DNA from: an uncultured Nitrospiraceae bacterium
GTDB taxonomy: Bacteria; Nitrospirota; Thermodesulfovibrionia; Thermodesulfovibrionales; SM23-35
Direction of reading: 5' to 3'
NCBI GenBank assembly: GCA_963727775.1
Contig: CAVSHB010000001.1
Span: forward strand, 448,001-512,000
DNA length: 64,000 nt
Part shown: one piece after another, positions 22,460 through 42,630 of the stretch
How the letters are laid out: every line of letters starts with the position of its first letter
Numbering within the stretch: the stretch's first letter is position 1
The notes under the pieces: model-generated
Told to the model about the DNA's origin: nothing
The model's input: only the letters and a program-made list of their open reading frames with translations
The model's database searches: none
Translations under genes and position numbers: made by a program

Positions 22460-22679
22460 AATCAATTATAATTATAATCTATATCTGCAATATTCAAAAG
22501 TTTGTACTCGTTGAGACCTGAGACGATCCAGGCATGGTCATTGATTGACTTCTGATTCAAGAAGAATGCTTTTGAGGACCGTGGACCAAATGGGTAACTA
22601 TTGTCCCCAAAGAATGGCTTTTGTCTGACGGTATTCACAAGGCTCGGGTTGATATTCCTATGGAAAAATACTAAGCTTT

Positions 22680-25095: not shown

Positions 25096-25237
25096 AATCT
25101 CCATACCCCGCCGTCTCTGCGGCGGGCACCTTACGTCGTCGGGGTGCAGGGCGTCGGAGCGAAGCGCAGACCCTTGCCGACCCGCGGGGTCTAATACCCC
25201 GTGGTGTCGTGCCGAGCAAAGCGAGGTTTAGTTTATT
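25096..25237 (+). mobile_element. 142-bp element, copy 4
   Basis: Identical repeat; preceded by TTCATT. Confidence 0.9.
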
Positions 25238-25261
25238 ATTCAATGAAAAAGAGGAGGAGGG

Positions 25262-25537
25262 ATGGCTAATTATAAGATTAAATGTGAAGCTATCGCCGTC
25301 CGCAGTGAATCCGGAACTTGCCCAGGTTCAGCTAAATGCCGAAAGGGAGAAACTTATATCCTGACAGCTCGAACACCTGAACCCGGAGGGATGTGCGGTC
25401 GGGCATTTGCTTCCATACATCCAATGGCATTTGCCATGCGGTGGTCGGAGAAGATGGAGTGGGAGAAGACTGATCACGTTAATGTCATTTGTCCGGACGG
25501 TTTCGTGACCTACAGACTTTCGAGAATAAAAGAATAG
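25262..25537 (+). CDS. Small Cys-rich protein (TIGR04076-like)
   Basis: GTCP...GMCGRAFASIHP...ICPDG; strong RBS GGAGG. Confidence 0.65.
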   Translation: MANYKIKCEAIAVRSESGTCPGSAKCRKGETYILTARTPEPGGMCGRAFASIHPMAFAMRWSEKMEWEKTDHVNVICPDGFVTYRLSRIKE

Positions 25538-25685
25538 GCTGATAAGCGCTTCTTCCTCTTCTATGTCTTCTATGTGGCAAGGCAGGAACATGATGCCGTG
25601 GCGCTGATTTTAACGGATAATCGACACCGCAAGACAACCAAGCCAATATTATACTGACTTCTCTTTTTCTGGTAATATAGACATA

Positions 25686-26036
25686 ATGCATAACGGCAAA
25701 ACCTATCCTCTAAGAAAAGATTTACTCACAGCGGTAGTTGATTCAGAGAAATCCATCGCAAAGGTGGAGATTAAAGAGGTGACCATGGGACCAAAACAGA
25801 AGGCTCCCTTACACTTACATCCATGTCCAACAGTCGGGCTAATTACCGAGGGAACAATTTCGTTTCAAATTGAGGGTAAGCCCGTTCAACCCCTTAAAGC
25901 TGGTGATGCATTCTATGAACCTGCAAACGTTAGAGTAGCCAAATTTGATAATGATGGCGATACTCCTGCGAAATTTGTCGTGTTTTATCTGCTCGGAAAA
26001 GACGAGCACGAAATTGTTCGCATTCTACCCAAGTGA
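25686..26036 (+). CDS. Cupin-domain protein
   Basis: PLHLHP...EGTI...LKAGDAFYEP. Confidence 0.8.
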   Translation: MHNGKTYPLRKDLLTAVVDSEKSIAKVEIKEVTMGPKQKAPLHLHPCPTVGLITEGTISFQIEGKPVQPLKAGDAFYEPANVRVAKFDNDGDTPAKFVVFYLLGKDEHEIVRILPK

Positions 26037-26217
26037 CAATCCGAAGGATAGAGCAATGAATGAAGAAGCAAAAACGGCAGCAAGTACAAATTATACAGTG
26101 GCACAGATAAGCACATTTAATAAACTCAATAGCTACAAGTTCAGTCATCAGAAGCTGCCATTCGACGTCTTAGCGCAGCAATCTTCACCAGAGCATCAAG
26201 TATAAGGAGCATAACAG

Positions 26218-26655
26218 ATGTCCATCAGTAGCAATGCCAAAGAGATACTCATTCAATTTACCCGCGAGGTATGGAGCGAAGGCAATATCGAAGCCTCAGA
26301 TAAATATATTGCACCAAAATACACAATTCATCACGATCCTGGCGATCCATGGGAAGGTCGGGAACTTGATCTCGCAGGCTATAAGGAGCGCGTCAAAACA
26401 TTGCGTGCGGCGTTTCCCGATCAGTTCTTCGACATACAGGGACTTTTTGCCGACGGTGACGCTGTTGTGATGACTTGGCTCTGGTCAGCCACGCACAAGG
26501 GGGACATTCCTGGATTTCCCGCTACAGGCAAGCAAATCAAGATGTCTGGAGCTACGGTTTACTATTTCGATGGTAGCCGACTCACTGGGCATTGGCAGAT
26601 CACTGATCGTCTTGGCGTGTATCAGCAGTTACAGCGGGCATCTACTCGTGCCTGA
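26218..26655 (+). CDS. SnoaL-like ester cyclase family protein
   Basis: AAFPD...ADGDAV...THKGDIPGFPATGKQI...DRLGVYQQL. Confidence 0.85.
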   Translation: MSISSNAKEILIQFTREVWSEGNIEASDKYIAPKYTIHHDPGDPWEGRELDLAGYKERVKTLRAAFPDQFFDIQGLFADGDAVVMTWLWSATHKGDIPGFPATGKQIKMSGATVYYFDGSRLTGHWQITDRLGVYQQLQRASTRA

Positions 26656-26663
26656 CGAATGCC

Positions 26664-26728
26664 GCCCACCCATCATTCCACCGGACCTGCGCGAAAAGCC
26701 GCGCATGCCGCTGAATTCAAACATTGCC
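26664..26728 (+). other. Degenerate integron attC-like site
   Basis: Imperfect palindrome ATTCCACCGGACCTGCGCGAAAAGCCGCGCATGCCGCTGAAT just after a stop codon; RYYYAAC and GTTRRRY ends are mutated. Confidence 0.6.
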
Positions 26729-26810
26729 TGTTCACTTTTAACGGTAATCAAAACTTTTTTCACATTATCGATCCCGAGTAGTTGCGCGGTGAAGTCACCC
26801 TTCTCAATAA

Positions 26811-26870
26811 CTTCCTTGAAGTCCGCAACATTGAAACCTGATATAATTGTGCATAGTACAACTGGAAATG
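26811..26870 (+). repeat. Conserved inter-gene site, copy 1
   Basis: CTTCCTTGAAGTCCGCAACATTGAAACCTGATATAATTGTGCATAGTACAACTGGAAATG. Confidence 0.85.
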
Positions 26871-26893
26871 CGCATTCCTGATTTGCTTGAAGA

Positions 26894-26909
26894 TAACATA
26901 TATGTTATA
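26894..26909. promoter_or_regulatory. Palindromic operator of the TA operon
   Basis: ATAACATATATGTTAT perfect palindrome upstream of the toxin gene. Confidence 0.6.
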
Positions 26910-26923
26910 CTTCAAGTGTAATT

Positions 26924-27271
26924 GTGATGAACTGGACTATCGAATATTACAGGGATTCAAAAGATAAGGAACCCGTTAAAGAGTTTATTGATGGTCTTCC
27001 TGAGAAATCGCAGGCACAAGTAATCGGGAAGATTGAACTTTTAGCAAAGTATGGCGTATTGCTGAAAGAACCTTATACCCGACACATCAGAGGGAAGATT
27101 TGGGAGCTTAGAATAATTGTCAGCAAAGGATATAGCCGAATTTTTTATTTTTCGTATACAGGTAGAAGATTTGTTTTATTGCACGCTTTTTTGAAAAAAA
27201 CAGATAAGACCCCGCCAGCGGAAATAGACATAGCTGAAAAAAGAATGCAGGATTTTATAAACAGACAGTAG
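26924..27271 (+). CDS. RelE/ParE-family (HigB/Gp49-like) toxin
   Basis: EPVKEFI...KIWELR...RIFYF...LLHAFLKKTDKTP. Confidence 0.88.
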   Translation: MMNWTIEYYRDSKDKEPVKEFIDGLPEKSQAQVIGKIELLAKYGVLLKEPYTRHIRGKIWELRIIVSKGYSRIFYFSYTGRRFVLLHAFLKKTDKTPPAEIDIAEKRMQDFINRQ

Positions 27272-27290
27272 ACGACCAAGGAGGATATAG

Positions 27291-27608
27291 ATGAAAAAGA
27301 AATATGTGAGAGGTACAACTATAGAGGAACATAAGGCAGAGCTTATGAAGAATCCGAAATTCAAGAAGGCGTGGGAAGAGTTGAAACCTGAATTCGATCT
27401 TATGGAAAAGATGATTATAGCGAGAGGAAAGGCCGGGATATCTCAGAAGGAATTAGCGCGGAGGATCGGCACAAAGCAGAGTGCGATAGCCAGACTTGAA
27501 GGGGGAGGTTTTAACAAGGCGACCGTCGAAACTTTGGGGAAAATCGCCGACGCTCTTAATTTTAAGTTAGTAATAAAGCTGCAGCCCAAAAAAGAGGCTA
27601 CGGCTTGA
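27291..27608 (+). CDS. XRE-family HTH antitoxin
   Basis: ISQKELARRIGTKQSAIARLE...TLGKIADAL, downstream of the toxin. Confidence 0.88.
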   Translation: MKKKYVRGTTIEEHKAELMKNPKFKKAWEELKPEFDLMEKMIIARGKAGISQKELARRIGTKQSAIARLEGGGFNKATVETLGKIADALNFKLVIKLQPKKEATA

Positions 27609-27628
27609 TATAGCTTCGTTGTGATGTC

Positions 27629-27687
27629 CTTCCTCTTCTCCACACATACCAGCCGTGATATAATTGTGAGTAGTACAACCAGAAATG
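27629..27687 (+). repeat. Conserved inter-gene site, copy 2
   Basis: CTTCCT...CCGTGATATAATTGTGAGTAGTACAACCAGAAATG. Confidence 0.75.
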
Positions 27688-28047
27688 AACAAAACCGGCT
27701 GGGACAATAAAGACGTCTACGACGGAGGGCGCATGCGCTGGTATCACTACATTGCCTACTTCTTTGGTGGGGCGTTCCTCTCGAACGCCGTGCCCCACTT
27801 CGTAAGCGGCGTGTCTGGGCATTCGTTCCCCAGCCCGTTCGCGCATCCACCCGGGGAAGGGCAGTCGCCCGCGCTGGTGAACGTGCTTTGGGGCTTTGCG
27901 AACCTCATCATCGGCTACTTGCTTATCTGCAAGGTGGGAACCTTTGAGCTGCGACGCTGGCGGCACGTCCTTGTGGCCGGGGCCGGAGCACTCTTGATGG
28001 CCGTGATGCTCGCGCGGGCATTCGGGAAGCTCTACGGCGGGTTGTGA
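27685..28047 (+). CDS. Small integral membrane hypothetical protein
   Basis: Three hydrophobic segments, NAVPH...FPSPFAHPPG motif; visibly more GC-rich than its neighbours; start may be 27733. Confidence 0.75.
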   Translation: MNKTGWDNKDVYDGGRMRWYHYIAYFFGGAFLSNAVPHFVSGVSGHSFPSPFAHPPGEGQSPALVNVLWGFANLIIGYLLICKVGTFELRRWRHVLVAGAGALLMAVMLARAFGKLYGGL

Positions 28048-28098
28048 TAGGGACCTCTCTCTCGACCCTCCAAATTTGGTGATCCGAAATCAACAATC

Positions 28099-28160
28099 CT
28101 TCCTTGTTTAGTCCGCACCTATTAAACCTGATATAATTGTGTGGAGTATAAAGGGTAATT
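28099..28160 (+). repeat. Conserved inter-gene site, copy 3
   Basis: CTTCCTTGTTTAGTCCGCACCTATTAAACCTGATATAATTGTGTGGAGTATAAAGGG. Confidence 0.85.
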
Positions 28161-28190
28161 AATGATTAATGTCGTCGCAGATTATCTTCT

Positions 28191-28361
28191 ATGGCAATAG
28201 CAATTGTCCCGTGGCATTGTGAACGCTGTAAAAGTGAGATTGGCGGAGTCTTCAGGCTACGTTGTTCACAGTGCAACAGAATGATATGTTTGTTCTGCGT
28301 AGCTCCGATTGCTTCGGTAAAGGCAAGGAAGGTATTCTGCAGAAGTTGTAAGCCTATATAG
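28191..28361 (+). CDS. 56-aa protein with four CxxC pairs (zinc-finger-like)
   Basis: Hand translation MAIAIVPWHCERCKSEIGGVFRLRCSQCNRMICLFCVAPIASVKARKVFCRSCKPI; absent from the ORF track. Confidence 0.6.
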   Translation: MAIAIVPWHCERCKSEIGGVFRLRCSQCNRMICLFCVAPIASVKARKVFCRSCKPI

Positions 28362-28508
28362 ATAAATTCATATCTTCCTGAAAGCCACACTATGGACATA
28401 CGCTTTTTTGCAGGTCAGTTTCTATCGGAAATGTGTTATTATTCCGTTCATGGGATCAGAAAATACCCGCAGGGTATAGTAATTGTGTACCACCAAAAAG
28501 GAGTACTT

Positions 28509-28964
28509 ATGAAAAAATATTCAATCTATGCGGTCATAGCAGGACTCATTTTTTTATTTTCTTCCAGTGTAGATGCTGGCGTGTACTCGGATGATTTATC
28601 CCGATGTTTAGTCGAATCTTCAACATCCTCAGACAAGCTCATGCTTGTGAAATGGATGTTTACTTCCATGTCTCTTCATCCAGCCGTCAAATCGATGGCA
28701 TCTGTATCAGCCAAACAACTTGCTGACTCTAGTAAAGAAACAGCAGATATGATCGTAAACCTTGTCACTAAAACTTGTAGAGATCAAGCCAAAAAAGCAA
28801 TAAAATATGAGGGTGGGGTCGCACTTCAATCGAGCTTTAGTGTTTTTGGACAAGTAGCTGCTAAAGAATTGTTCTCCCACCCTGATGTGGCCGCTGGGTT
28901 GGCAGGGTTAGAAAAGTATTTGAGTGCTAAAAAAATAAAAGAGGCCTTGGAGATAACTGAGTAA
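28509..28964 (+). CDS. Exported hypothetical protein
   Basis: RBS GGAG, signal peptide MKKYSIYAVIAGLIFLFSSSVDA, DDLSRCLV...LVKWMF. Confidence 0.75.
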   Translation: MKKYSIYAVIAGLIFLFSSSVDAGVYSDDLSRCLVESSTSSDKLMLVKWMFTSMSLHPAVKSMASVSAKQLADSSKETADMIVNLVTKTCRDQAKKAIKYEGGVALQSSFSVFGQVAAKELFSHPDVAAGLAGLEKYLSAKKIKEALEITE

Positions 28965-30456
28965 AATATTGGCTAACCGGCTCATTCACCAGATGGCGAC
29001 AAGCGCGGCGCAGGTCGTTGCGTATAGCGCCCGTAAGTCTTCAGTCTCGATCCTTGCTTGATTTTGAGGACTTGTAGGGTATGCTGTGTAAAACGTATGA
29101 CTTGTCGGTTAAAGTCCGACGGTGGGAATTTGGTAGCTCGCCCACATAGCTTGAGGGAGGTGCCAAGGGTAACCTAAAGCATCAAGTTTCCTGACAAAGG
29201 CTCCGAAAGGGAGCTGAGCAAATCTGTGGGTCGCAGCTAATGCGAACCCAGACGTAGCCTCGAAATGCACAATGGAGTTGTCGACCCTCTCCTACATTGG
29301 GGAAGACCGCTGCATCTATCCTAACAAAAACTACCATAACCGATAGATGGACTTCCGGGGTAACAGGGGTGACACGCAGAGGAAGCCATATGACAATGAA
29401 CACAGGAGACCCTTGTCGATGCTGTACAGGACAGTAACCGGTGGATATAAGGCGACGAAATTCCACGGGGTCGGCAAGGGAGTCGGATTTGCCCATAGCG
29501 TACCGTTTGTATCCCGAAGACAACATAACTTTGGGAGAGGGAAGGGGCAATGCTTTTATCATGTTTTCGAAGAAGTAAAGGAAAGGAGATTGCGTAATGC
29601 TGAAAACTCCGGAAAAGATTCGAGAACTTCAGAGAAAACTATACCAGAAGGCCAAGCAGGAAAAGGAGTACCGATTCTATCTTCTATATGACAAGGTCTA
29701 CAGGCTGGATATCCTGAACCATGCCTATAATCTTGTCAGAGCAAACAAGGGTGCGCCGGGAATAGATGGTGAGACCTTTGTCCTCATAGAAGAAAGAGAA
29801 GGAGGAGTAACGGGATATCTTGAAGAGATCGCCGTGGAACTCAAGCGGAAGGAGTACAAGCCGAAGCCTGTCCGTAGGGTATATATCCCGAAGACAAGCG
29901 GAGGCAAAAGGCCGCTTGGAATCCCAACGATCAAAGACAGAGTAGTGCAGATGGCTGTAAAGATAGTGATCGAACCCATATTCGAAGCCGATTTTCAGGA
30001 AAACTCATACGGGTTCAGGCCGAAGCGGAGCGCTCATCAGGCGGTAGACGATGTGAAAGAGCAACTCATGAGAGGCAAGACTGACGTAATTGATGCCGAC
30101 ATCTCCAAATACTTCGACACCATTTCCCACGACAAACTTATGCAGTTGGTAGCGAAGCGGATAGTGGATAAGAACATTCTGAGATTGATAAAGATGTGGT
30201 TGAAAGCGCCGATTGTGGAGGAACGTGAGGATGGAAAGAAGGAGTATAAAGGGAATGATAAGGGGACTCCCCAAGGCGGTTTATCCAAAGCTTTGGATAA
30301 TCCGCCTTATCAAAAGTAAAATATTATCCAAAGTAAATGCTGTAAGCGCTTGATACAGTTAGGTTTGGGGTTCATTTACTTTGGATAATACGGCAGACCA
30401 AGGTATTTATGGGAGATTGAAGAACCGATCTCACTAAATATTTTGGAGGAATACCG

Positions 30457-31692
30457 ATGAACAGCCCGCCTTTGCAAGATTTAATCACACGACTGGAAAA
30501 AGAACTGTACCGTCTCCATTACAAAAAAGATACGGTAAAGTACTATCGCATGATGTGGAAACGTATTGTCGCGTTTTTCGAAAACGAAGGAGTCGACCAC
30601 TTTGCAGAAGAAGTGGGTATGCGTTTTCTGGACAAGCAGTATAACTTTTTCGAATTAGAGGAAGCGGGAGATCTAACGCAATCGATCATTAACGCCTTTC
30701 GAGTTGTCCGGATGCTTGGTGACTTCCAGCAACATGGCAGCATTCTGCGCAGGTACTACAAACAGAAAGAGCTGCTGTATAACGACGAATTCAAGGAGGT
30801 ACTGCAGTACTATGTAACCCATTGCCAGCAGAAGGAATACTCCAAAGTGACACAAAATCACTATGGTAAAATTTCCGAACAGTTTCTGAGTTTTTTGGAA
30901 TCACAAAAGATTGTCTCTTATTCAGATATTACCGCTAAACATGTATCCGGCTATATCAACACGTTGTTGGGGTACAGCTATAAGACTGTAGAATTGCATC
31001 TTTGTGCGTTGCGCTCGTTTTTGCGCTATCTTCACACTAACGATCTTCATCCACAGGACCTGGCAGAAACCATCCCTGCGATTAAGGCCAGAAAGCAAAA
31101 CAGAATTCCTTCGGTATGGACTCCGGAGCATGTCGCCAAGTTGCTCGATGTCATAGGCAGAGGCAATCCTGCCGGAAGAAGGGATTATGCAATGATCCTT
31201 CTGGTCGCGCGGTTGGGCCTCCGTACGATAGATATCAAGCGTTTGAAATTGGACAACCTGAAATGGCCGGATAATCGCATCGAATTGATACAGTCCAAAA
31301 CGTCCGGAGTGCTGAGCCTCCCACTTCTTCCCGATATCGGCTGGGCGATCATTGATTATCTGAAAAATGGGCGTCCCAAGGTGGAAAGCCCCTACGTTTT
31401 TTTGCGGCACCTTGCGCCACTGGAACCATTCTCGGATGAAGACAGACTGCATCAAATCTTGGTCAAATATATGAGACTGGCCAAAATCCCGATTTCTCCT
31501 CAGAAAAAGAGAGGCATGCATTCCTTACGGCACACGCTGGCAAGCAGATTACTTCAAGAGAAAACACCCTTATCCGTTATTTCCGATATATTGGGACACG
31601 TCAGTTCGGATTCAACGGCTGTCTATCTTAAGGTGGACGTGGAGATGCTACGTGAATGCGCGCTGAACCCCGAGGGGGTGTTCGAGTCATGA
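30457..31692 (+). CDS. Tyrosine recombinase (RitA-type)
   Basis: RDYAM...GLR, HSLRH, LGH, TAVY. Confidence 0.92.
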   Translation: MNSPPLQDLITRLEKELYRLHYKKDTVKYYRMMWKRIVAFFENEGVDHFAEEVGMRFLDKQYNFFELEEAGDLTQSIINAFRVVRMLGDFQQHGSILRRYYKQKELLYNDEFKEVLQYYVTHCQQKEYSKVTQNHYGKISEQFLSFLESQKIVSYSDITAKHVSGYINTLLGYSYKTVELHLCALRSFLRYLHTNDLHPQDLAETIPAIKARKQNRIPSVWTPEHVAKLLDVIGRGNPAGRRDYAMILLVARLGLRTIDIKRLKLDNLKWPDNRIELIQSKTSGVLSLPLLPDIGWAIIDYLKNGRPKVESPYVFLRHLAPLEPFSDEDRLHQILVKYMRLAKIPISPQKKRGMHSLRHTLASRLLQEKTPLSVISDILGHVSSDSTAVYLKVDVEMLRECALNPEGVFES

Positions 31693-32675
31693 CCGAATTC
31701 ATATATAGCAGTCCATTTCAGGAATTTATCCAGGAAGTGATTCTACAAAAGCGTTCGCTGGGGTATAAGTATGACAGCAGTGCACGGGTGCTTTACCATT
31801 TTGATCAGTTCTGTCTGACATACGGCTGCACAGAACCGGTACTGTCCAAACAACTTGTCGATTCATGGCGTCAGAAACGCCCGAATGAAGCTCAGGCGAC
31901 TTTACAGATCAGGGTATGCGTTGTACGGCAACTGGCCATGTACATGACTCGTCTCGGGGTGCATGCTTATGTGCTTCCCAAAAATACCCTCCCGAAGGGA
32001 CCCAGATACATTCCCTACATTTTCAGCAATGATGAGCTTGCAGAGTTTTTCAAACAAGTGGATGCTTGCCATTACTGTGCCGAAGTTCCGAACAGACATT
32101 GGATCATGCCGCTGCTGTTCCGTATGTTGTATGGCTGTGGGTTGCGTATTTCGGAGGCGCTGAATCTCAAAGTGCGGGATGTAGATTTGAACACTGGTGT
32201 CCTCACGATTATGGATGGGAAATTCAACAAGGACAGGCTGGTTCCTATGTCCAAGGAATTACTTCATAGATGTCCTGCCTATATGAAGCAGGTCCATTTG
32301 TTTTCTGATTCTAACGCTTATTTCTTTCCTTCTCCGAACGGAAAAACGATAACCAAAGGGAATGTCTATAAAAATTTCAGGAAATTCCTTTGGAAAGCCC
32401 GGATTTCTCATGGTGGATGGGGAAAAGGGCCGCGGCTCCACGATTTGAGGCATAGCCATGCTGTTCATTGTCTGAGGCGCTGGGTGCTGGAAGGAAAGGA
32501 TTTGACTGCCTACCTGCCTATTCTCAAAACGTATCTGGGCCATCATTCCTTTAGCGATACATCCCAGTACTTGAGGCTGACCGCTGAACTTTATCCGGAT
32601 ATAACGGCAAAGGTGGACCATGCTTTTGGCCATGTCATACCTATTATGAGGAGTGAAGACTATGAAACCAACTGA
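31689..32675 (+). CDS. Tyrosine recombinase (RitB-type)
   Basis: GCGLRISEA, KFNKDRLVP, PRLHDLRH, YLGH...TSQY. Confidence 0.92.
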   Translation: MTEFIYSSPFQEFIQEVILQKRSLGYKYDSSARVLYHFDQFCLTYGCTEPVLSKQLVDSWRQKRPNEAQATLQIRVCVVRQLAMYMTRLGVHAYVLPKNTLPKGPRYIPYIFSNDELAEFFKQVDACHYCAEVPNRHWIMPLLFRMLYGCGLRISEALNLKVRDVDLNTGVLTIMDGKFNKDRLVPMSKELLHRCPAYMKQVHLFSDSNAYFFPSPNGKTITKGNVYKNFRKFLWKARISHGGWGKGPRLHDLRHSHAVHCLRRWVLEGKDLTAYLPILKTYLGHHSFSDTSQYLRLTAELYPDITAKVDHAFGHVIPIMRSEDYETN

Positions 32676-33672
32676 CTTTGCCAAGGCATTATCTCATTAC
32701 CTATCCGTTTATCTGCCGGGCCAGCGCAATGTCAGCCCCAACACGATCAAATCTTATCGGGATACTTTCAAACTGTTTCTCATATACTGCAAACAGGGTT
32801 GCGGCCTGTCCATTGAATATATCTGTCTACAACGCATCGATGAGCCACTCGTGGTTGGGTTCCTCTCATGGCTTGAACAAGACAGAAAAAGCAGTATCGC
32901 TACGCGCAACCAACGATTGGCCTGTATTCATGGCTTTTGTAGGTATATGCAGGTCGAAGACCCTGTCGGTCTATTGTCATACCAGAAAATTCTCTCAATT
33001 CCGATGAAGAAAGCTCCAAAGCCAACGGTGCATTATCTCACACCTGATGCATTGAAACTCATTCTTGCCCAGCCCGATCTTTCCAAAGCCAGTGGCCGTC
33101 GTGACTTAACGATGCTTTCGGCACTGTATGATACAGGGGCCAGAGTTCAGGAGTTGATTGATCTAAAGGTTCGTGATGTCCGATTGGATCATCCACCAAT
33201 CCTGACCCTGACTGGCAAAGGCCGCAAAACCAGGCAGGTTCCAATTATGTCCAATATGGAATCCCTGCTGCGGCAGTACATGACCGAAACTTATCTGCTT
33301 CAAAACGGCATGCAGGACCGCCCGTTATTTGTAAATCGCCAGCGCGGCAAGCTGACTCCAATGGGCGTTACATTCATTCTGAACAAATACGTGTCTCGTG
33401 CAAGGGCAGTGTCTTCGATTATTCCGGATAATGTTACCCCCCATGTTTTCAGGCATACGAAGGCGATGAATTTGTTACAGGCAGGGATTAACCTGATTTA
33501 TATCCGGGATCTTTTAGGGCATGTCGATATTTCAACAACTGAAATTTATGCCCGTACAGATACTGAGCTGAAACGAAAAGCGTTAGAAAAAGCATATCCC
33601 GACATGGTTGTAACTGATTTGCCGCAGTGGAACCAAGATGAAGGGCTACTTGCCTGGCTAAGCCGTCTCTAA
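32662..33672 (+). CDS. Tyrosine recombinase (RitC-type)
   Basis: SPNTIKSYRDTF, TRNQRLA, TGARVQE, PHVFRH, LGH...TTEIY. Confidence 0.92.
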   Translation: MKPTDFAKALSHYLSVYLPGQRNVSPNTIKSYRDTFKLFLIYCKQGCGLSIEYICLQRIDEPLVVGFLSWLEQDRKSSIATRNQRLACIHGFCRYMQVEDPVGLLSYQKILSIPMKKAPKPTVHYLTPDALKLILAQPDLSKASGRRDLTMLSALYDTGARVQELIDLKVRDVRLDHPPILTLTGKGRKTRQVPIMSNMESLLRQYMTETYLLQNGMQDRPLFVNRQRGKLTPMGVTFILNKYVSRARAVSSIIPDNVTPHVFRHTKAMNLLQAGINLIYIRDLLGHVDISTTEIYARTDTELKRKALEKAYPDMVVTDLPQWNQDEGLLAWLSRL

Positions 33673-34591
33673 CACACGCAGTATTATCCAAAGTAAATGA
33701 AACACAAACCTAACTGTATCAAGCGCTTACAGCATTTACTTTGGATAATATATTACTTTTGATAAGGCGGAATAGTCTCGCCCCTCCTCGCCAATATCTA
33801 CCTCAATGTGCTCGATACGTTATGGAAGATCGAGAAAGTGCAGGAGAGATTTGGTGCACGGCTTGTGAGGTACGCTGACGATAGTATAGCATTATGCAAA
33901 GGCAGTACCGAGCAAATATTGAAGGGAATGAAGGCGGTTCTCAGTAACCTGGGGTTAGCCCTGAATGAAGAGAAGACAAGGGTTGTGAATGCACAGCACG
34001 AGAGCTTCAATTTCATGGGTTTTACCATAGTAATGAGAAGGGGCAAGAGAACCGGACGTGAATTTCCTCTCATCATGCCGTCTAAGAAGGCGCTGAAGCA
34101 CATCCGGTCAGAAATCAAACAATTGACCACTGAGCGGTATAGTGCAACCCCTACTGAAGATGTAATCCAGCGAGTTAACGAAATCGTTAGAGGATGGGTG
34201 GGCTATTTTTATTACGGCAACTGCACCACAGCGATGTCATCTCTGAGGAACTATCTGGTACGGAGGATACGGATATACCTGCACCGTAAGCATCATTATA
34301 ACGGTTATGGGTATAAGCGGTTTCCGGATGAGTACTACTACCAGACCTTGGGTTTATACAAGATCCCGAGAACTGCCCCATGGACTCAGTCTGTGAAAGC
34401 ACCTGGATGAAGATAATCGGTAAGCCGTGTGCGGGAAAACTGCATGCACGGAATTGACGAGGGGGAACTGGAGATAGAACCACTCCGGCTACTACGCCAG
34501 TTCTCTACTCTACTGGCTTTGAGAAAAACGGTATGCGTCTTACGGGGCAAAAGAAACACAGTATTCCAGAGACTCCCGTGAGGCAATGATC

Positions 34592-34650
34592 CTTCCTGAA
34601 ACATGCCTCCCTTAAACCTGATATAATTGTGATGAGTATAACCGCAAATC
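34592..34650 (+). repeat. Conserved inter-gene site, copy 4
   Basis: CTTCCTGAAACATGCCTCCCTTAAACCTGATATAATTGTGATGAGTATAACCGCAAAT. Confidence 0.85.
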
Positions 34651-34672
34651 ATCGGACAATAAGGAGGTAGAT

Positions 34673-34840
34673 ATGCCCGCTTATGAATATATCTGTAAAG
34701 ACTGTAATCGTGAGGTCACTGTCTTCCTGTCTATTAAAGAATTTGAAGCTAAACCAAAAATCAAATGCCCTCATTGTCAAAGTGATAATGTGCAGAAAAA
34801 AATCTCGGAGTTTACTGTAAAAACAAGTAAAAAATCATAG
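34673..34840 (+). CDS. FmdB-family zinc-ribbon protein (55 aa)
   Basis: RBS AAGGAGG; MPAYEYICKDC...CPHCQSDNVQKKIS; absent from the ORF track. Confidence 0.85.
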   Translation: MPAYEYICKDCNREVTVFLSIKEFEAKPKIKCPHCQSDNVQKKISEFTVKTSKKS

Positions 34841-34856
34841 TCTATGGAACTAATTT

Positions 34857-34915
34857 CTTCCTGAAACCCGCAACATTGAAACCTGATATAATTGTGCGTA
34901 GTGCAGGAGATAATA
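34857..34915 (+). repeat. Conserved inter-gene site, copy 5
   Basis: CTTCCTGAAACCCGCAACATTGAAACCTGATATAATTGTGCGTAGTGCAGG. Confidence 0.85.
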
Positions 34916-34975
34916 AATAATGATTAGACATGGAATCATATGCCTCATTGCAGTATTTCTTATTGGCTGTGCTAG

Positions 34976-36678
34976 GAGTCTGTCGGACTTTCAACATTTC
35001 TGAAAAGTTTACTTCTTGAAGGACACGGCAGTCTCTTAAGAACCTTTATTGCAAACTGGGCAGCAGAAATCTTTTCGGCCTGTAATTATCTAAGTCCGAC
35101 AGACCTGCATGGGCGTTCCTTATGGCATAATAGACAAGCGGCATAAGAATGAACAACAGGAGATCAGCATAATGTTCAAACAATGTGACAGAGAGACGAT
35201 ATATTTATTTCCGCCGTCGGTGCAGGAATGGTTGCCCGAGGGTCACTTGGCGAGATTTGTCGTAGAGATAGTGGATCAGCTTAATCTTGACCGGTTGAAA
35301 AATGATTATGCAGGACGAGGCAGTGAGGCATACAGCCCTGAGATGCTGGTGGCATTATTATTTTACGGATATGCGACGGGAGTCTTTTCGAGCAGGCAAT
35401 TAGAGCGTAGCACGTACGACTCTGTAGCATTCCGGTATGTGGCAGCCAACAGTCACCCTGACCATGACACAATAGCAACCTTTCGACGTCGGTTTTTGCC
35501 TAAGCTGAAAGAACTGTTTGTGCAGATACTAATGATAGCAGCAGAAACCGGGGTATTGAAGTTAGGCACGGTCAGCTTGGATGGGACCAAAATGAAAGCC
35601 AATGCCTCAAAGCACAAGGCGTTGAGCTACGGGCATGCATGCAAAATAGAGAATAAGTTGAAAGTGGAAGTGGCGGAACTGATGAAGAAAGCTGAGGCTG
35701 CTGACAAAGCTGACATTCCTGACGGCATGAACATCCCGGAAGAGCTGGAGCGGCGAGAGAAGCGGCTGAAAATGATAGCTGAAGCAAAAGCTGAGATAGA
35801 GCGCCGTGCGGCAGAGCGGCATGCAATGGAACAAGCCGACAGTGAAAAGAAACAGGCAGAGCGTGTAGCCAAACAAAAGCAGAGCGGCAAGAAACCCCGA
35901 GGCAAAGGACCCAAGCCGCCTGCAGCCGGGCCAACTGACAAAGATCAGGTCAATCTGACCGATGAAGAATCTCGCATAATGCCGGCATCGGGTGGAGGAT
36001 TCAAGCAGGCTTATAATGCTCAAGCAGCCGTGGATACAGAAACAATGCTTATTGTCGCAACGCATGTAACACAACAATCCAATGACAAACAGCAGATGAA
36101 ACCAGCGCTTGAAGCGCTTACATATCTGCCCGAACAACTTGGCAAAGTAAAAACTATAATAGCCGACAGCGGGTATTACAGCGAAGCAAATGTGCAAGAA
36201 TGTGAGAGCAAAGGAATAGAGCCATATATAGCAGTAGATCGGCAGAGTCATAATCAGCCTTTATGGGAGCGATTCGTCGAACCGCCTCCATTGCCGGTTG
36301 ATGCTGATGCAGTGACAAGAATGAAACATCGGTTGAAGACAGTTGCCGGTAAGGCAATTTATGCGATACGCAAGAGTACTGTGGAGCCGGCGTTTGGGGT
36401 AATCAAGGCAGCTATGGGATTTGACCGATTCCTGTTGCGTGGTTTTACTGCAGTCAATGGCGAGTGGGATATGATCTGCATTGCATGGAACATCAAAAGG
36501 CTGCATGCATTGAGGAACAGCCAGGTAGGCGCCTGAAAATGGCGATGGCATAATGTATCCAACAAAACACCGGCAGGAAAGAACCGATGACAGACGATCA
36601 AATCATGAAAAATAACTACAATCGACTCTCTCGGATTCCAACCGCTGTCAAAAACAGCAATTCAAGTCCGACAGACTC
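34976..36678 (+). mobile_element. IS1182-family insertion sequence
   Basis: 15-bp IRs GAGTCTGTCGGACTT / AAGTCCGACAGACTC; CTAG flanks. Confidence 0.9.
35109..36536 (+). CDS. IS1182-family transposase
   Basis: WLPEGHLARFV, SSRQLE, PDHDTIATFR, DGTKMKANAS, TDEESRIM, YNAQ, ADSGY, VEPAFG; start probably 35172. Confidence 0.9.
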   Translation: MGVPYGIIDKRHKNEQQEISIMFKQCDRETIYLFPPSVQEWLPEGHLARFVVEIVDQLNLDRLKNDYAGRGSEAYSPEMLVALLFYGYATGVFSSRQLERSTYDSVAFRYVAANSHPDHDTIATFRRRFLPKLKELFVQILMIAAETGVLKLGTVSLDGTKMKANASKHKALSYGHACKIENKLKVEVAELMKKAEAADKADIPDGMNIPEELERREKRLKMIAEAKAEIERRAAERHAMEQADSEKKQAERVAKQKQSGKKPRGKGPKPPAAGPTDKDQVNLTDEESRIMPASGGGFKQAYNAQAAVDTETMLIVATHVTQQSNDKQQMKPALEALTYLPEQLGKVKTIIADSGYYSEANVQECESKGIEPYIAVDRQSHNQPLWERFVEPPPLPVDADAVTRMKHRLKTVAGKAIYAIRKSTVEPAFGVIKAAMGFDRFLLRGFTAVNGEWDMICIAWNIKRLHALRNSQVGA

Positions 36679-36682
36679 CTAG

Positions 36683-36817
36683 GAGCCTGTCGGACTTTCA
36701 ATATTTTTTGAAAAGTCGACCTCCTGAGAAGCCCTTCGCTTAAAAAACTTTTTTAGGGCAAACTGGACACCCAAAATCATTCATTTTTGCCGAAAACACG
36801 CTAAGTCCGACAGACTC
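36683..36817 (+). mobile_element. 135-bp MITE with IS1182-type ends
   Basis: GAGCCTGTCGGACTT...AAGTCCGACAGACTC, CTAG on both sides, no ORF. Confidence 0.85.
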
Positions 36818-37561
36818 CTAGTATCGCAGAACGTCAAAACTATATAGTTTCAGAATATCTTTCGACCAATGCGGATATCGATTCGACTTTTCGGGAAGCT
36901 ATGAAGTCCGGCAAAGTTATTAGAGGAATGACTGCGGAAGAGGTATTTATTGCGAGCGGCGCAAAAGCAAGGAGATATGAAAATTACTCCTCGATTTGGG
37001 TTGTTCGCGAAGACGGCACGCTACACCTTCCACCGTTTTTCCTTAGACCCGGAACTCCGACCGCCTTAATTTTTAAGAACACTACGCAATATGATACGGC
37101 AGTACCTCAGCTTTTCGTAGTATACATGGATGCGGATGACAAGGTATTAAGAGTAGAGCGGGGGACTGCCAATTTGACACATATTAAGTGAATAGAGCCA
37201 TAGTTTCAAGCTCAGACAATAGACCTTTGTCCGTATGCCACATTGCTTCCTGTTATCCACATCTTTGATCCTGCTGTCAGAACTGTGTATTTCTTGTGTA
37301 AATCAACTTTTGTCAATGATCAGAAATCTATTAGCGCACTTATTTCCAAAAAGGAAACAATAGGATTTGCTATACTTAAATGTAGGGCGAATTTTAAATC
37401 CCTATATCAAATATAGGGCGCGTTAATAAGTTCTAATTCTTATAGCAGTCTGTGGTTTAGGACTGAGTAATTTGTTATTGAAGTGAAAGAGCTACGTCCA
37501 TGAGAGTGACAATATAAGGAAGGTATAGTACTCGTTAAAACAACTGTCAAAGGAGTGTAAC

Positions 37562-37842
37562 ATGAAACGTTTAGTAATATTATCAATTATGGTTTTAAGC
37601 ATTGTGTTTTCAACTACCGGGAAAAGTATCTTTGCTGATCAGCCGACAGAAAATACAAATGACACATCTTCGCTATCCGGTAAGGTAGTTGAAACAATGG
37701 ACAGTAGCGGATACACTTATGTGTGTCTTGAGAAGAGCGACAAAAAAATATGGTTAGCGGTCCCCAAAATGAAAGTAGTTGTAGGGCAGAATATGTCTTT
37801 CAAACCCGGTATTGAGATGGTAAATTTTGAGAGTACGACCCT
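37562..37842 (+). pseudogene. Exported protein (OB-fold-like) truncated by the IS481-like element
   Basis: Signal peptide, LSGKVVETMDSSGYTYV...WLAVP...NFESTTL, then element end. Confidence 0.65.
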
Positions 37843-37857
37843 TGTGCACGCCAAGAG

Positions 37858-38901
37858 TTAATGATACCGAAATGAGAAAAAATTGGGTAACACTTTTCCA
37901 TTAATCGTAATCGTAATAAAGCCTTTCATGTTCAGCCATGCCTCCACGGCGATGCGCCAAGCCGCCTGGGGCTGAACCCCTTCACTGCAAAGTATATCAC
38001 TCTGCAAGGTCGTTATCCAAACATAGGCATCCCTCCTTTCCCATTTGGAAAAAGCTCTTTTTCCGATGAAGTACACCCTGCAGGCGTTGTTACCGTTCAA
38101 GCACGGACGAGGTTGGTGATTAAGATCATGCTCAACCGTCGAGGCGTATGCCTCTATGTGTTCTCGTGGGCAAAAGGGCCTGTACGAGAGCTTAGCGGCA
38201 AGCCCATTTTTCAGCTCGGTTTGCGCCTCTTCGATCGCACCGTTATAAGGCGGATAATGGACCGGGCTATTCACCGGTAGGACAAAATAATCGGCAAGCA
38301 CGTCATTGACAGCTGCATGATTGAGGTTACCTCCATTGTCCCGTTTTAGGAACAGGGGTGCTCCAAACCGATTGAAGGTTGCCGCAAGATAGCCGGATAT
38401 CTCTTCGCCGCAGGGAACTTCTCCCGTCATGGGATTAAACTTATAGCGTGACGCGAGATCTTGCATCTGGTTCAGGTATACCTTTGCACCAGTTGCGTCA
38501 CGCTGTTCGTATTCGCAGGGGTCCATGGACCAGGCGACGTTCGGCACGTTCCAGCGGATGCGCCGCAGATTCTGACGATGGTAGGTATTGAGATCGTGCC
38601 GCGCCATTGCTACCATTGTATGCAGCTTCCGCCTTGATACGGTGGATCCGTAGCGAACATATAACGCCCCGGTTCCCTGCGTGCGATTGTGCCCGTGAGA
38701 TAACTGTGCTATATCCTGCTCAATCTTGCCAAAATCCGGTGGCTTGACCTTGGGAGGACCAGGTTGCCGCACCAAGGGCGTATCTTTTTTGCGCCGTATG
38801 CGCCACCGCATAAAACTCGGGTAGGGCAGTCTTACGGCATAGCAGATCGCTCTGTAGGGCATCCCGGTCCTCTCCCTGATCTGGTCAATCATGGCAAGCA
38901 T
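37858..38901 (-). CDS. DDE integrase-core (rve-like) protein
   Basis: AWSMD, QDLASRY, KRDNGGN, PPYNGAIE, NHQPRPCL. Confidence 0.8.
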   Translation of the reverse strand: MLAMIDQIRERTGMPYRAICYAVRLPYPSFMRWRIRRKKDTPLVRQPGPPKVKPPDFGKIEQDIAQLSHGHNRTQGTGALYVRYGSTVSRRKLHTMVAMARHDLNTYHRQNLRRIRWNVPNVAWSMDPCEYEQRDATGAKVYLNQMQDLASRYKFNPMTGEVPCGEEISGYLAATFNRFGAPLFLKRDNGGNLNHAAVNDVLADYFVLPVNSPVHYPPYNGAIEEAQTELKNGLAAKLSYRPFCPREHIEAYASTVEHDLNHQPRPCLNGNNACRVYFIGKRAFSKWERRDAYVWITTLQSDILCSEGVQPQAAWRIAVEAWLNMKGFITITINGKVLPNFFSFRYH

Positions 38902-38906
38902 ACGAG

Positions 38907-39293
38907 TTATCGTTTCTTCCTTTGCTTTCGTTTTTTTTCCTCCCGATTTGTCGGGACGCTTTTCTTATCACCGGCATTCTGCAACTCATACGCATGCAAC
39001 ATATCCCGCACTTCTACCGTCTTTTCAGCGACAAACAACTTCTTCCGGAGTTCGGTAACCTCCTCCTGTAAACGCTGCTTCTCCTCGTCCTGCGGCATGT
39101 TCGGTCTGCCGGCAGATTTGTTTTCCATGGCTTCTGTCATCGCCTGTAATGCCCGGCTTTCCCATTCGTAGTAGGTCTTGCGGGACACGCCCAGTCGGCG
39201 CGCACCCTCCTCGGCTGTTATCTGGCCGCTGCGCACGGCAAACACCACCGCTGCTCTTTGGCGGGCACGCTCCTTATCCTTTGAGTCGCTCAT
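38907..39293 (-). CDS. HTH plus coiled-coil protein (IS3 OrfA-like)
   Basis: TAEEGARRLGVSRKTYYEWE followed by a coiled coil. Confidence 0.75.
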   Translation of the reverse strand: MSDSKDKERARQRAAVVFAVRSGQITAEEGARRLGVSRKTYYEWESRALQAMTEAMENKSAGRPNMPQDEEKQRLQEEVTELRKKLFVAEKTVEVRDMLHAYELQNAGDKKSVPTNREEKKRKQRKKR

Positions 39294-39437
39294 AGCACAC
39301 TCCCTTTAACAACTAAAAATCTTCGGATTGAGAGAAAATCGCCTTCCTCAGAAGCCCTACAATCGATTTTCTCAACTCGGTCCATATTTAACCATCACCC
39401 GTTTTCTGCCTTGCCCCATTATTAGGATGTCTCTACG

Positions 39438-39866
39438 CTACGGTTTCTCAGTTTTCCGCAAGGCTTCGCCGGAGGGTTTTATCTCCTTCGACTGAGGCGT
39501 CTCCGCTTTCCTTGCTTCCTGTGCCTTTGATAGCGTCCTTTCCAGTCTGCCCTGCACTGTGCTCGTCAAGAGCGTCAGACGCTTCTTCTCCAGCAACGCC
39601 TGCAAGCGGGGAGAAAGCGCTGGCCCCCTGTCCAGGCTCACCCTCGGCTCCAGCGCCTGGAGCATCCCCTCCATCGCCCGCCTCTGCCAGTGCGCAAGCG
39701 CCATCCAGGGGATCGACAGCTCCCGGCATATCTCCGCCGGTCTGCGCCTCTCCGTCCATACAGACAGTACCGCCTTGCACTTTTCCATTGCCCCGTAGTT
39801 CATCGGCTGCCGCTTCTTCTCGCTCTTTATCTTCTCCGTCTTCTCCATTGTCATGTCCTTTCTCAT
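39438..39866 (-). CDS. HTH-like hypothetical protein overlapping the transposase tail
   Basis: KCKAVLSVW...AEICRELSIPW...WQRRAMEGMLQAL resembles the adjacent HTH ORF. Confidence 0.6.
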   Translation of the reverse strand: MRKDMTMEKTEKIKSEKKRQPMNYGAMEKCKAVLSVWTERRRPAEICRELSIPWMALAHWQRRAMEGMLQALEPRVSLDRGPALSPRLQALLEKKRLTLLTSTVQGRLERTLSKAQEARKAETPQSKEIKPSGEALRKTEKP

Positions 39867-41010
39867 TTAGATTGTAAACTACTTCCTGCGTAATGTCGTC
39901 GTTTTCGGCGTCAACCGACAACCTCAGCCTGCCCTTTTCCGCACGCAGCACCACCGACTGCCCCTCCATCCGGCCCACCATGTAAAACGGCAGGCGCGGC
40001 TTGCCCCTTAGCGCCATCTCAAGGAGGTTGTCCTGGATGCCCTGCTCGATGGTCTTTCTAAGCTCGCTCTGGATCTCAAAATACCGGTCTGCGGGACACA
40101 AGCCGCCGATACCCTGATGCGGCCTTTTATGGTTGTAATACTTCACCCACTGACGTATCCGCTCAACCGCATCTTCAAAGCTACCGAACTGGGCTCGGCT
40201 TAGGAACTCCAGAAAAATCGTCTTCCAGAATCGCTCTATCTTCCCTAATGTCATCGGGTGGTGAGGCTGCGATTTGATGTGGTGGATTTTGTCTTTCTTT
40301 AACTCCAGTTCGAAGCGGCTGTTGCCGCGCCAGCTCGTATACTGCCGCCCATTATCCGTAAGCATCTCTTTGGGCGGGTTGTACTCGGAGGCCGCCCGAC
40401 GGTATACCTCTATAACATTCTGCGCCGTTTGGCTGCGGAAAAGCTCAAGCCCCGTTATGTAGCGGGAATAATCGTCTATATAGCCGATCAGAAACGCATA
40501 GCGGCCCCCAAGTCGAAACGTAAAGATATCCGTCTGCCAAAGCTGGTTCGGTGTTGATCGCTCGAAAAACCGGGGACGGGTAATATTACGCTGCCGCTTC
40601 TTGGGTGGGGCCGTCATGAGGGATGATTCATGCAGTGTCTTACGGACCGTCTCAGGGCTGGCGGAAAGGAAAAACACTCTCTTTAATAGTTGCGAAATGC
40701 GCTTGATACCGAAAAGCGGGTTGCCTTCTTTGATTTCGACGATCTTCTCTTTCACTGGAGTGGGAAGGCTGCGTCCCTTACCGGTGTACCTCATCGATAG
40801 TCCGGCTTCGCCCTCACGACGATAGGCACGTACCCAGCGTCTTACCGAATTACTGCTCACTCCGCATTCCTGCCGGATCACCGGAACGGGAACGCTCTCC
40901 TCAACGTACTTCTTGACTATTTGAAGCTTGAAATCGGGCCCGTAACGATTGCTTCGCTTCGGAAACTTCCTCTTTGTACTGCTCTTTTGTACACCCTCTG
41001 CTGGTTCCAT
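39448..41010 (-). CDS. IS481/IS3-superfamily transposase
   Basis: N-terminal HTH; WQTD, DDYSRY, TDNGRQY, GKIERFWKT, YNHKRPHQGI. Confidence 0.88.
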   Translation of the reverse strand: MEPAEGVQKSSTKRKFPKRSNRYGPDFKLQIVKKYVEESVPVPVIRQECGVSSNSVRRWVRAYRREGEAGLSMRYTGKGRSLPTPVKEKIVEIKEGNPLFGIKRISQLLKRVFFLSASPETVRKTLHESSLMTAPPKKRQRNITRPRFFERSTPNQLWQTDIFTFRLGGRYAFLIGYIDDYSRYITGLELFRSQTAQNVIEVYRRAASEYNPPKEMLTDNGRQYTSWRGNSRFELELKKDKIHHIKSQPHHPMTLGKIERFWKTIFLEFLSRAQFGSFEDAVERIRQWVKYYNHKRPHQGIGGLCPADRYFEIQSELRKTIEQGIQDNLLEMALRGKPRLPFYMVGRMEGQSVVLRAEKGRLRLSVDAENDDITQEVVYNLNEKGHDNGEDGEDKEREEAAADELRGNGKVQGGTVCMDGEAQTGGDMPGAVDPLDGACALAEAGDGGDAPGAGAEGEPGQGASAFSPLAGVAGEEASDALDEHSAGQTGKDAIKGTGSKESGDASVEGDKTLRRSLAEN

Positions 41011-41095
41011 CTATGACACTCCTTTCGTTAACCTAAACTTGGAGTGTCACCCTATTTCCTCAAATCTTTGGTATCATTATCTGGTCGTTAGCACA

Positions 41096-41673
41096 GGATT
41101 TCGGAATTAGAAAAATCAGAGGCAGAGCGCAAAGGGGCAGAGAAAGCGCTACGCAAATCAGAAGAGCAATATCGGGCTGTCTTTGAAAATACCGGAACTG
41201 CAATAATAATTTTCGAAGAAGATTTTACTATTTCCAGGGTAAATAGAGAAGCTGAAAAACTATCTGGTTATTCCAAGGAAGAAATGGAACGCAAGAAGAA
41301 ATGGACAGACTTCATTGCTGAAGATGACCTTGAGCGGGTGAAAGAATATCACCATCTTAGAAATATAGAACCTCATATAACTCCGAAGAATTATGAGTTT
41401 CATCTCGTCGATAAACGTGGAAATATCAAGGATATCCTTTTAATGATTGATATAATTCCTGGTGTGAATAAAAGGGTAGCCTCCCTTATAGATATAACAG
41501 AATACAAGCATGCAGTGGAGGCTTTGCGTAAAAGGAAAGAAGAACTCAAGGAGAAGGTGAAAAAGCTTGAGATGTCTTATGAGATGGCGGTTCTTAAGGA
41601 ACGTCGCATGAAAAAGTTAGAAGAAGAAAATGAGAAATTAAAAGAAGAATTGGGAAGATATAAAAATCAATAA
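41096..41673 (+). pseudogene. 5'-truncated PAS-domain sensor protein
   Basis: Frame open from the element end: ISELEK...ALRKSEEQYRAVFENTG...VNREAEKLSGY...DITEYK. Confidence 0.7.
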
Positions 41674-42458
41674 AAAATTCCGTGCGCGCAATTTGTCTTT
41701 CATTGCACATTTTAACTGGAAAACAGCAATCCTCTGAATTTGATAGAACTGATGATTTGTAGGTGCTAGATCGCAAGACTACCTTTTCAGCTCTCTAAGG
41801 CTGTGCATACTTCAGGGCGAAACTTTATTTTCTGCGTGTGGTCACGTTGTTCATTAATTATCAAAAGTAACTAACACTGCAGGCTATCTCTCAGAGGAGT
41901 TGGACTGACGAGTGGCAGAAATTTCCGTTGCGATCGTGCCGTGCGTATTTTGAGACAAACTCATCGTGAATTGCCGCTCTGCATAAATGTAGAGTATCAG
42001 ATGGAAGAAACGTTCTCAAACTTTAAACTGGGACGGGAGTTACTGGATGAACACCACAGATTGAATAGGGCCCTGGTGCGAGGATTAGAAATGGTAATTA
42101 TTACTGTGGTGTAATGTCCACAGTGTCATGTTGTAGGTGGACTCCACACCGGCCGATGAAAATTCTGATCTTCTTTCTTCTTGCCTGCGCCGATAAATGT
42201 TTCTTCCAGTATTTCACGCGGGAAAAAGTGGGTCTCTGAATCCACTCGCCGAAAAATTGAATTCCAGACGCCGGGGGAATTCGTAAAGTTATGCGGCGGA
42301 CTCCGCAGTCATGCAAAAACGATGATGGTATCGACTTCCGTGAGAAGTATTGCCATTAGATACCTATATAAACGGCAGGTGCAAACAGGGCATTCAGGGA
42401 GTCCCAAGCGATTATTATCATCTTGTCGAAAAGTCAGCTATTTATGTAAAACTTAATT

Positions 42459-42600: not shown

Positions 42601-42630
42601 GTCTTCGTTTTTTGCCGGAGCTGTCAAAAA

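Follow-up and report, generated by a model that had tools for sequence, protein, structure and literature searches.

A putative gene-cassette system with two unlike types of site in Thermodesulfovibrionales bacteria

To our knowledge, integrons and dif modules are the only well-known site-specific gene-cassette systems. Here we compare them with an array of small genes, headed by a repeated site, in a 64,000-nucleotide stretch of DNA (the window) from an uncultured Nitrospiraceae bacterium of the order Thermodesulfovibrionales (GenBank assembly GCA_963727775.1, contig CAVSHB010000001.1, positions 448,001 to 512,000). The window corresponds to C1:448001-512000 of genome G000, which comprises 3.43 Mb in four contigs (C1-C4); positions without a contig name are those of the window. 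Integron cassettes and attC clusters without integrases nearby (CALIN) are described as shuffled, same-strand single accessory genes with one site per cassette and, as here, no integrase in the neighbourhood (PMC4889954), and their attC sites are targets of IS1111-attC insertion sequences (IS) and IIC-attC introns (PMC3001079). The dif or pdif modules are oriented, site-bounded units with toxin-antitoxin or other small cargo, which exchange only with partners of the same core or spacer, possibly through a host enzyme in trans, and for which a cointegrate route has been proposed (PMC13141974). Cis-mobilizable elements (CIMEs) are enzyme-less units that keep their recombination sites and accrete in tandem (PMC5704250). 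The array works like integron cassettes and dif modules, from which the construction of its sites sets it apart, and recalls the accretion of CIMEs.

Two types of site, which we call S and E, make up the system. The S site consists of a 7-bp core, CTTCCTG, and a fixed-length arm of ~58 bp behind it; in the E site, a fixed-length arm of ~56 bp precedes a 7-bp core, GTAGGTG. Both arms carry a part-palindromic box, D, on the side facing the cargo and ~46 bp from the core. The centre of D lies 46 bp away from a CT in S and E alike, with the best pairing at +/-5 (0.95) and +/-7 (0.60-0.68). Arrays run in the order S-gene-S-gene...E: of the 35 E arms of the genome, 17 have an S as the preceding arm on the same strand within 6 kb, in two of the 35 the upstream S lies on the opposite strand, and single S-cargo-E units of 0.6-2.8 kb also exist. 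With this second, end-type arm, modules can be two-ended. It was found upstream of a conserved block, P, as a D box like that of S, ~30 bp and GTAGGTG. P precedes 22 of 186 sites, and a metagenome scan for it returned 91 rows (81 non-redundant), with a core at fixed distance in 64 and a promoter-type arm in 18. From E to the next S, the spacing is mainly a 19-bp spacer (Q) or the 76-bp P, the count of P being inflated by ascertainment; ten E-to-S distances are 26 bp. Elsewhere, many E arms stand behind attC-like stems or terminators.

The repeats at the five sites first noticed in the window are real and part of this larger system. The element TGATATAATTGTG occurs at 26839, 27656, 28129, 34619 and 34884, on the + strand throughout and with no mismatch (allowing up to two, there are seven matches against 1.87 expected), and CTTCCT starts at 26811, 27629, 28099, 34592 and 34857, leaving gaps of 22, 21, 24, 21 and 21 bp; the five bipartite sites of the initial annotation were thus recovered with their positions and 21-24 bp gaps. 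The short distances from stop codons are likewise as described, copies 2, 3 and 5 standing 20, 51 and 16 bp behind one and the copies at 28374 and 37246 standing 12 and 54 bp behind one. So is the unrelatedness of the cargo, in which Pfam recognises Gp49/RelE-like plus HTH_3 and Zn_ribbon_8 proteins and assigns the membrane gene and the 4xCxxC gene to no family. With the five sites as seeds, a position weight matrix (PWM) reaches 51 genomic sites that score over 24 bits, with none in reversed or complemented genomes, and these sites cluster in arrays, the largest of which (C2:264741-286849) alternates site and gene over ~17 sites. E forms a family of its own, and the final ungapped models count 78 arms of S and 35 of E in the genome and none of either in controls; all fetched DNA together holds 365 S and 186 E arms, the E set being enriched through the P-based scan. 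The next open reading frame (ORF) is co-oriented with the site in 136 of 153 cases.

The array is broader than first given (~25241-41765) and includes E arms and the 76-bp spacer besides. The copies at 28374 and 37246, taken at first for left-half remnants, are both promoter-less full-length arms (scores of 7.6 and 18.1 bits, where all 941 occurrences of CTTCCTG in the genome give -15.1 +/- 10.3), and at the third supposed half-site (25552) the arm is displaced rather than absent, its homolog in G053 being intact. Beyond the promoter-type arms, the S arms of the P-based scan are decayed yet in register, scoring 8.0 bits in a leave-one-out test against -2.7 when shuffled. The idea of a site-borne promoter needs a similar adjustment. 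By sequence match, 136 of 279 S arms have the extended -10 box TGnTATAAT (up to one mismatch) in register, whereas integron cassettes are mostly promoterless; a promoter is therefore frequent but optional, with 143 of the 279 arms lacking the box, and a match near the mirrored place occurs in one of 145 E arms. The arms show no hairpin or RNA structure: RNAalifold predicts 0 pairs on either strand, and the folding of the five sites stays within about 2 standard deviations of shuffles in both directions. As there is no consensus fold on either strand, recognition is likely to take place on double-stranded DNA. The sites had been judged not to be attC, and indeed they show no R boxes or hairpin, although the R-box scan also missed a decayed attC at 26660 and is thus insensitive. 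No target duplication was found between the two D boxes.

Comparison of homologous modules shows that the sites are swap points and that exchange occurs at the 7-bp cores with the polarity S...E. Among 186 non-redundant sites, 60 pairs are alike in their downstream DNA only and 14 in their upstream DNA only; no pair shares both sides. In the 15 and 7 closest pairs, with positions counted from the CT of CTTCCTG, upstream-sharing sites are at background past +4 and downstream-sharing sites before -4, and the switch in the identity profile falls within -6 to +4 of the core. A stricter rerun with 358 S arms left 18 pairs alike only downstream and 18 alike only upstream, whose breaks have modes at -6 and +2 relative to the last T of the core; this test restricts breaks to ~+/-10 by design, and its modes alone are informative. 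Where the E arms of two sites are alike to 80% or more (21 pairs), the downstream DNA is unrelated in 16, with the break at or just past GTAGGTG, and 13 E pairs have in common only the DNA behind the core. The module at 27624-28104 has a 95% copy at C3:204112-204586, with an S core at each end and different neighbours, and the toxin-antitoxin module of the window, where it recurs in G005, G068 and G069, carries another 43-bp segment behind the core, with the register unchanged. Homologous modules thus lie in differing neighbourhoods with breakpoints inside the site, and gene order between sites is variable, not invariant; as in integrons and CALIN, single-gene units of one orientation are reordered across genomes. 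The core first proposed (ACCTGATATAA / N6 / AGTRYAAC) is nevertheless not where this happens, as the main crossover lies ~27 bp to its left, in CTTCCTG.

The system appears to be a property of the lineage. Of 57 genomes of the same family, 50 contain matches to a sequence-only S model at E <=0.01 (best E <=1e-5 in 43 of the 57), with 0 to 75 S copies per genome. The strict S pattern is present in 10 of 24 same-family genomes and in 0 of 16 from the other families of the order, and the exact pattern has 10 loci in GTDB genomes, in Nitrospirota, Thermodesulfovibrionales, Ca. Sulfobium or Nitrospira-type bins. A model of the spacer also has matches in a second family, in 4 of 11 genomes, with S arms seen nearby, and neither pattern has a match in viral contigs. 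The cargo comprises 548 proteins in 451 clusters, 402 of them singletons; it is accessory and diverse, not the housekeeping set expected of an ordinary regulon.

Measured against the described systems, the array differs from integrons and CALIN in that the site heads the gene, about half of the sites bear a promoter, as integron cassettes rarely do, and a second, end-type site exists; like attC (PMC3001079), its sites are targets of IS110-family elements and a group II intron. From pdif modules (PMC13141974) it is set apart by the lack of a 28-bp XerC-6-XerD site, by one-sided arms of ~60 bp, by two fixed cores instead of variable spacers, by long direct-repeat runs of S and by its chromosomal location. 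The site is not dif itself, since the probable genomic dif (C1:~1518196, - strand) differs in the XerD arm. Compared with CIMEs (PMC5704250), the units are mostly 0.3-3 kb long, lie at tens of loci per genome, have no single tRNA-type target and contain a built-in promoter. IS607 (PMC6188088) shares the absence of terminal inverted repeats and target duplication and the long protein-bound ends, but has a GG core and encodes TnpA, and the genome's own copies carry no S or E arms. Had the arm come from an IS91/ISCR element, it should be the ori end of an element with a Y2 transposase; the ends of the genome's IS91-like elements are unlike S, and one copy starts at an E-like core, as a target. 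A non-autonomous derivative of IS110 was also rejected, S and E cores being different and the arms unfolded, and neither the 20 loci compared nor the genome repeats contained an IS110 that itself ends in S or E. None of the IS ends compared matches the site. A full-text literature search, with subscription journals largely outside it, returned no description of such a two-arm cassette system.

The cores are also a target of mobile elements. All five copies of IS110-A are inserted at CTTC-CT-G with the CT duplicated (two of the five in arms that are degenerate by eye), and types B, C and D at the same CT of the S core, while a further type, D2, is inserted in the E core and has guides for it (as read by eye). 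The leaders of types C and D fold into a stem; in its internal loop, one strand reads the left side of the S core and the other the right side, the fold energies being z -2.3 for D and an unremarkable +0.6 for C; bridge-RNA guides match the target core in three types. Some S arms start with IS110-end letters in register, which are probably footprints. In comparison with IS621-type IS110 elements (PMC11208160, PMC11208158), types C, D and D2 share the CT core, C and D share the internal-loop target fold, and the crossover position coincides with the module switch; by contrast, the IS110s are insertions in the site, and the modules have no transposase or structured RNA and have unlike cores at their ends. 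The group II intron of the window is inserted between GTAGG and TG of the E core, and relatives occupy the same insertion point at C1:35953 and at loci in G006 and G042.

On these grounds, we lean towards a cassette system of Thermodesulfovibrionales that resembles integrons and pdif modules, is acted on in trans and is exploited by mobile parasites, a reading we hold to be somewhat probable. Of the gene-capture system initially proposed, it keeps the shuffled, non-attC modules and gives up the geometry and the obligatory promoter. The recombinase would be encoded elsewhere and act on like with like sites. Tyrosine recombinases need a shared overlap of 6-8 bp. The exchanges retain a shared 7-bp core, so the enzyme would most likely be of the tyrosine type, which is the weakest step of the model, and an accessory dimer bound to D at fixed spacing would assist it. 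Recombination between direct S repeats would excise single-gene circles, which could re-enter at another S site and bring along their own promoter, whereas exchange at both ends together (S x S paired with E x E) would swap whole two-ended modules, as in pdif modules; this two-step exchange may be likened to the cointegrate route of dif modules. The joining of new cargo would take place close to the D box, and the IS110s and the intron would be parasites of a common and safe intergenic target, like IS1111-attC elements and IIC-attC introns.

Several observations weigh against this interpretation. The pairs counted are not independent events, and with no same-genus relative among the genomes a lack of pairs alike on both sides is in part to be expected. 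There is a second, softer switch zone at ~+39 to +45, and 67 pairs with near-identical arms carry unrelated cargo. No filled and empty site pair emerged from the 723 arm pairs tested; nine empty-site candidates were all self-matches or paralog artefacts. A CIME would call for an empty attB in relatives and for attL and attR of an identifiable integrase, and no integrase is linked. Fourteen DNA runs and no RNA run were listed for the stretch, with shares of 0.05-0.08, and no joints were found in contigs of four of these public sequencing runs, which cover <10% of the stretch. The 7-mers have no flanking inverted core-binding repeats. The S..E pairing and the like-with-like switches resemble the pdif orientation rule, and S correlates with reverse-complemented E at r 0.28-0.31 (shuffled maximum 0.21), but this mirror similarity hardly exceeds that of the forward alignment (0.24); E may be either the mirror image of S or a direct-repeat partner with the same TG. 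A linked enzyme is also missing: none was detected among 125 neighbours of the arms compared with Pfam (proteins of at least 150 aa), with 13 recombinase queries against all ORFs and a clustering of 548 neighbours, or among 80 of the 102 proteins ahead of E arms compared with NCBIfam (the 22 omitted being mostly already scanned or recognised). Phage-type integrases that do occur nearby are of unrelated tRNA-island types.

The recombinase-type neighbours are limited to IS110, one IS256 and unrelated DDE transposases, and the search for a co-occurring gene thus ended with no specific recombinase nearby. Within the window, the earlier statement that no cognate recombinase is identifiable is right in that none is linked, but three tyrosine recombinases do exist there, those of a RIT element inside the intron. 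That trio, a double-integrase unit, a gamma-mobile-trio-like island, IS91-like elements, IS607 and a resolvase (C1:1061255-1061872) were each compared, and none is linked. The host Xer recombinase lies at C1:93425-94306. For the integron integrase IntI, no TIGR02249 match exceeds the cut-off; a broken gene lies ~445 kb off (C1:927995-928957), within a locus (L024, C1:927674-928957) that has a small gene inside and adjoins a short array of small genes. Directly ahead of an S-cargo-E unit there is a three-gene unit (C2:675903-680524), which we take to be similar to a gamma-mobile-trio island.

IS110 alone among recombinase families recurs at the arms, and its bridge recombinases might themselves do the shuffling, with copies in adjacent cores moving a gene as a composite and then excising, the arms being promoter or regulatory sequence that the elements target. 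We regard this as possible, yet rather unlikely. It would account for the five IS110-A copies and types B, C and D at the S-core CT, for D2 at the E core, for the target loops of C and D that read the S core and for the S arms with IS110-end letters in register, and it agrees with the cut of IS621 just behind its CT core (PMC11208158). Bridge targets are nevertheless only ~11-14 nt long (PMC11208158, PMC11208160), whereas the arms are kept over ~58 bp in fixed register with or without a promoter, and promoter conservation leaves the E arms behind terminators unexplained. Moreover, IS110-A, the type profiled, occurs in only 5 of the 57 genomes, against 50 of 57 with sites (a comparison to be read with the loss of IS from draft genomes in mind), and the targeting of the E core by the intron as well fits a parasitism common to both kinds of element.

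Rather less probable is a non-autonomous transposon or integrative mini-element that has S as its left end, E as its right end and a crossover at a shared 2-bp TG, of serine-recombinase or IS607-like type, the S-only modules being one-ended captures. Both cores do end in TG, the letters behind E resemble those behind the S core, single S-cargo-E units exist, a joined form would set the D boxes symmetrically, and a small resolvase lies 59 bp ahead of an S arm (C1:1061195). An in-register E-to-S junction is, however, met with at most once, and doubtfully, in 95 E arms without the P spacer, and E and S are parted by conserved 19- or 76-bp spacers. No large serine recombinase is present in the genome (0 matches to PF07508). 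The small resolvase occurs in 7 of 57 genomes, with arms at three of the seven relatives' loci, the IS607 copies have no arms, and within a unit the left and right D boxes resemble each other no better than D boxes paired at random (7.79 against 7.72). An ordinary promoter or operator of a regulon, with swaps through microhomology or homologous recombination between copies, we hold to be very improbable. The extended -10 box in many copies, the part-palindromic box over the start region and the fact that some swaps fall inside the conserved promoter block would suit it; about half of the S arms are without the box, the cargo is made of unrelated accessory genes, the cores stand 12-55 bp behind stop codons, E arms stand behind genes and terminators, and most switches occur in the 7-bp core.

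Table 1. Features of the array, in window coordinates
Feature	Position	Strand	Basis or remark
91-aa cargo gene, head lost	25262..25537	+	G042 module has full S arm (L243: 96% over 800 bp, S score 51)
Degenerate S arm; IS110-A-like letters behind core, arm shifted ~12 bp	25552..25622	+	Core and arm intact in homolog L249
Cupin cargo gene	25686..26036	+	Pfam
SnoaL-like cargo gene	26218..26655	+	Pfam
Decayed true attC-like hairpin (integron cassette as cargo)	26660..26726	+	Bottom-strand fold -18 kcal/mol
Weak E arm	26729..26791	+	5 bits only; backed by 19-bp spacer downstream
19-bp E-to-S spacer Q	26792..26810	+	Near-identical in L083, L028, L094, L137
S arm 1, extended -10 box (26839-26847), D box	26811..26874	+	PWM/model
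RelE/Gp49-like toxin and XRE antitoxin cargo	26924..27608	+	Pfam
S arm 2; post-core letters match IS110-A end (probable footprint)	27629..27691	+	PWM/model
GC-rich membrane gene	27685..28047	+	ORF; no Pfam family
S arm 3	28099..28164	+	PWM/model
4xCxxC micro-protein	28191..28361	+	G006 homolog stops at same core, then different gene
Promoter-less S arm	28374..28436	+	Arm score
151-aa exported protein, then truncated attC-like stem (28969-29016)	28509..28964	+	ORF/Pfam
E arm: D box, ~30 bp, GTAGG; TG completing core at 34514-34515, past intron	29018..29078	+	E model
Group II intron within E core; reverse transcriptase gene split by RIT element (30298-33774, three tyrosine recombinases)	29079..34513	+	
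76-bp conserved E-to-S spacer P	34516..34591	+	
S arm 4, extended -10 box	34592..34654	+	PWM/model
FmdB zinc-ribbon cargo	34673..34840	+	Pfam; core-to-core module also in G022, other neighbours
S arm 5, extended -10 box	34857..34919	+	PWM/model
Lipoprotein gene broken by IS1182-type element (34972-36682) and partial end copy	34920..37191	+	
Promoter-less S arm	37246..37308	+	27 bits in final model
E arm closing array	41703..41765	+	45 bits

The true attC-like stems listed in Table 1 and the stems or terminators ahead of E arms elsewhere indicate that integron cassettes are captured into the system; contig ends related to the hairpin at 26660..26726 read GTTAG in three wetland or sediment runs. 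At 25100-25240, in place of the relative's S arm for the 91-aa gene, there is a GC-rich repeat resembling repetitive extragenic palindromes, with near-identical copies at ~22340-22460 and ~42500-42630 and elsewhere in the genome. The RIT trio has a 99.9% copy at C1:37764-41240, adjoining another copy of the intron, and the IS1182-type element (34972-36828 including the ~150-bp partial end copy) has at least 10 other near-full copies. Outside the window, two divergent S arms stand back to back 28 bp apart at C1:375968 and C1:375996, with similar pairs in G006, and a block headed by S contains an ankyrin-repeat gene with a 99-bp tandem unit (C3:81650-82630). A variant of the P spacer, P2 (C4:175434, C1:630558 and C1:1571826), runs into an IS21-like end, and one of its copies stands behind the same E arm as is found ahead of P in L095. 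Elements with two integrases and 16-bp inverted ends lie at C3:79165-81227 and C2:259113-264019, a related end abutting the start of the P spacer in L190, and integrase plus IS91-like elements bounded by dif-like palindromes (C1:23533, C3:339424) start at S-like and E-like cores.

All together, our results allow us to put forward, tentatively and at somewhat less than even confidence, a third natural gene-cassette platform, which would combine two heterospecific double-stranded sites, single-gene excision and cassette exchange, a built-in promoter, a dedicated recombinase with a D-box protein, and a guild of parasites peculiar to it, made up of RNA-guided IS110s and group II introns. If so, an enzyme for two non-cross-reacting cores would be a candidate tool for cassette exchange, and the origin of cassettes would become testable, as cargo joins map near one box. 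The locus displays several types of RNA-guided IS110 and an intron aimed at one repeated site. For the lineage as a whole, such a third system, whose sites supply expression, would explain the hundreds of unrelated accessory genes carried by these sediment bacteria.

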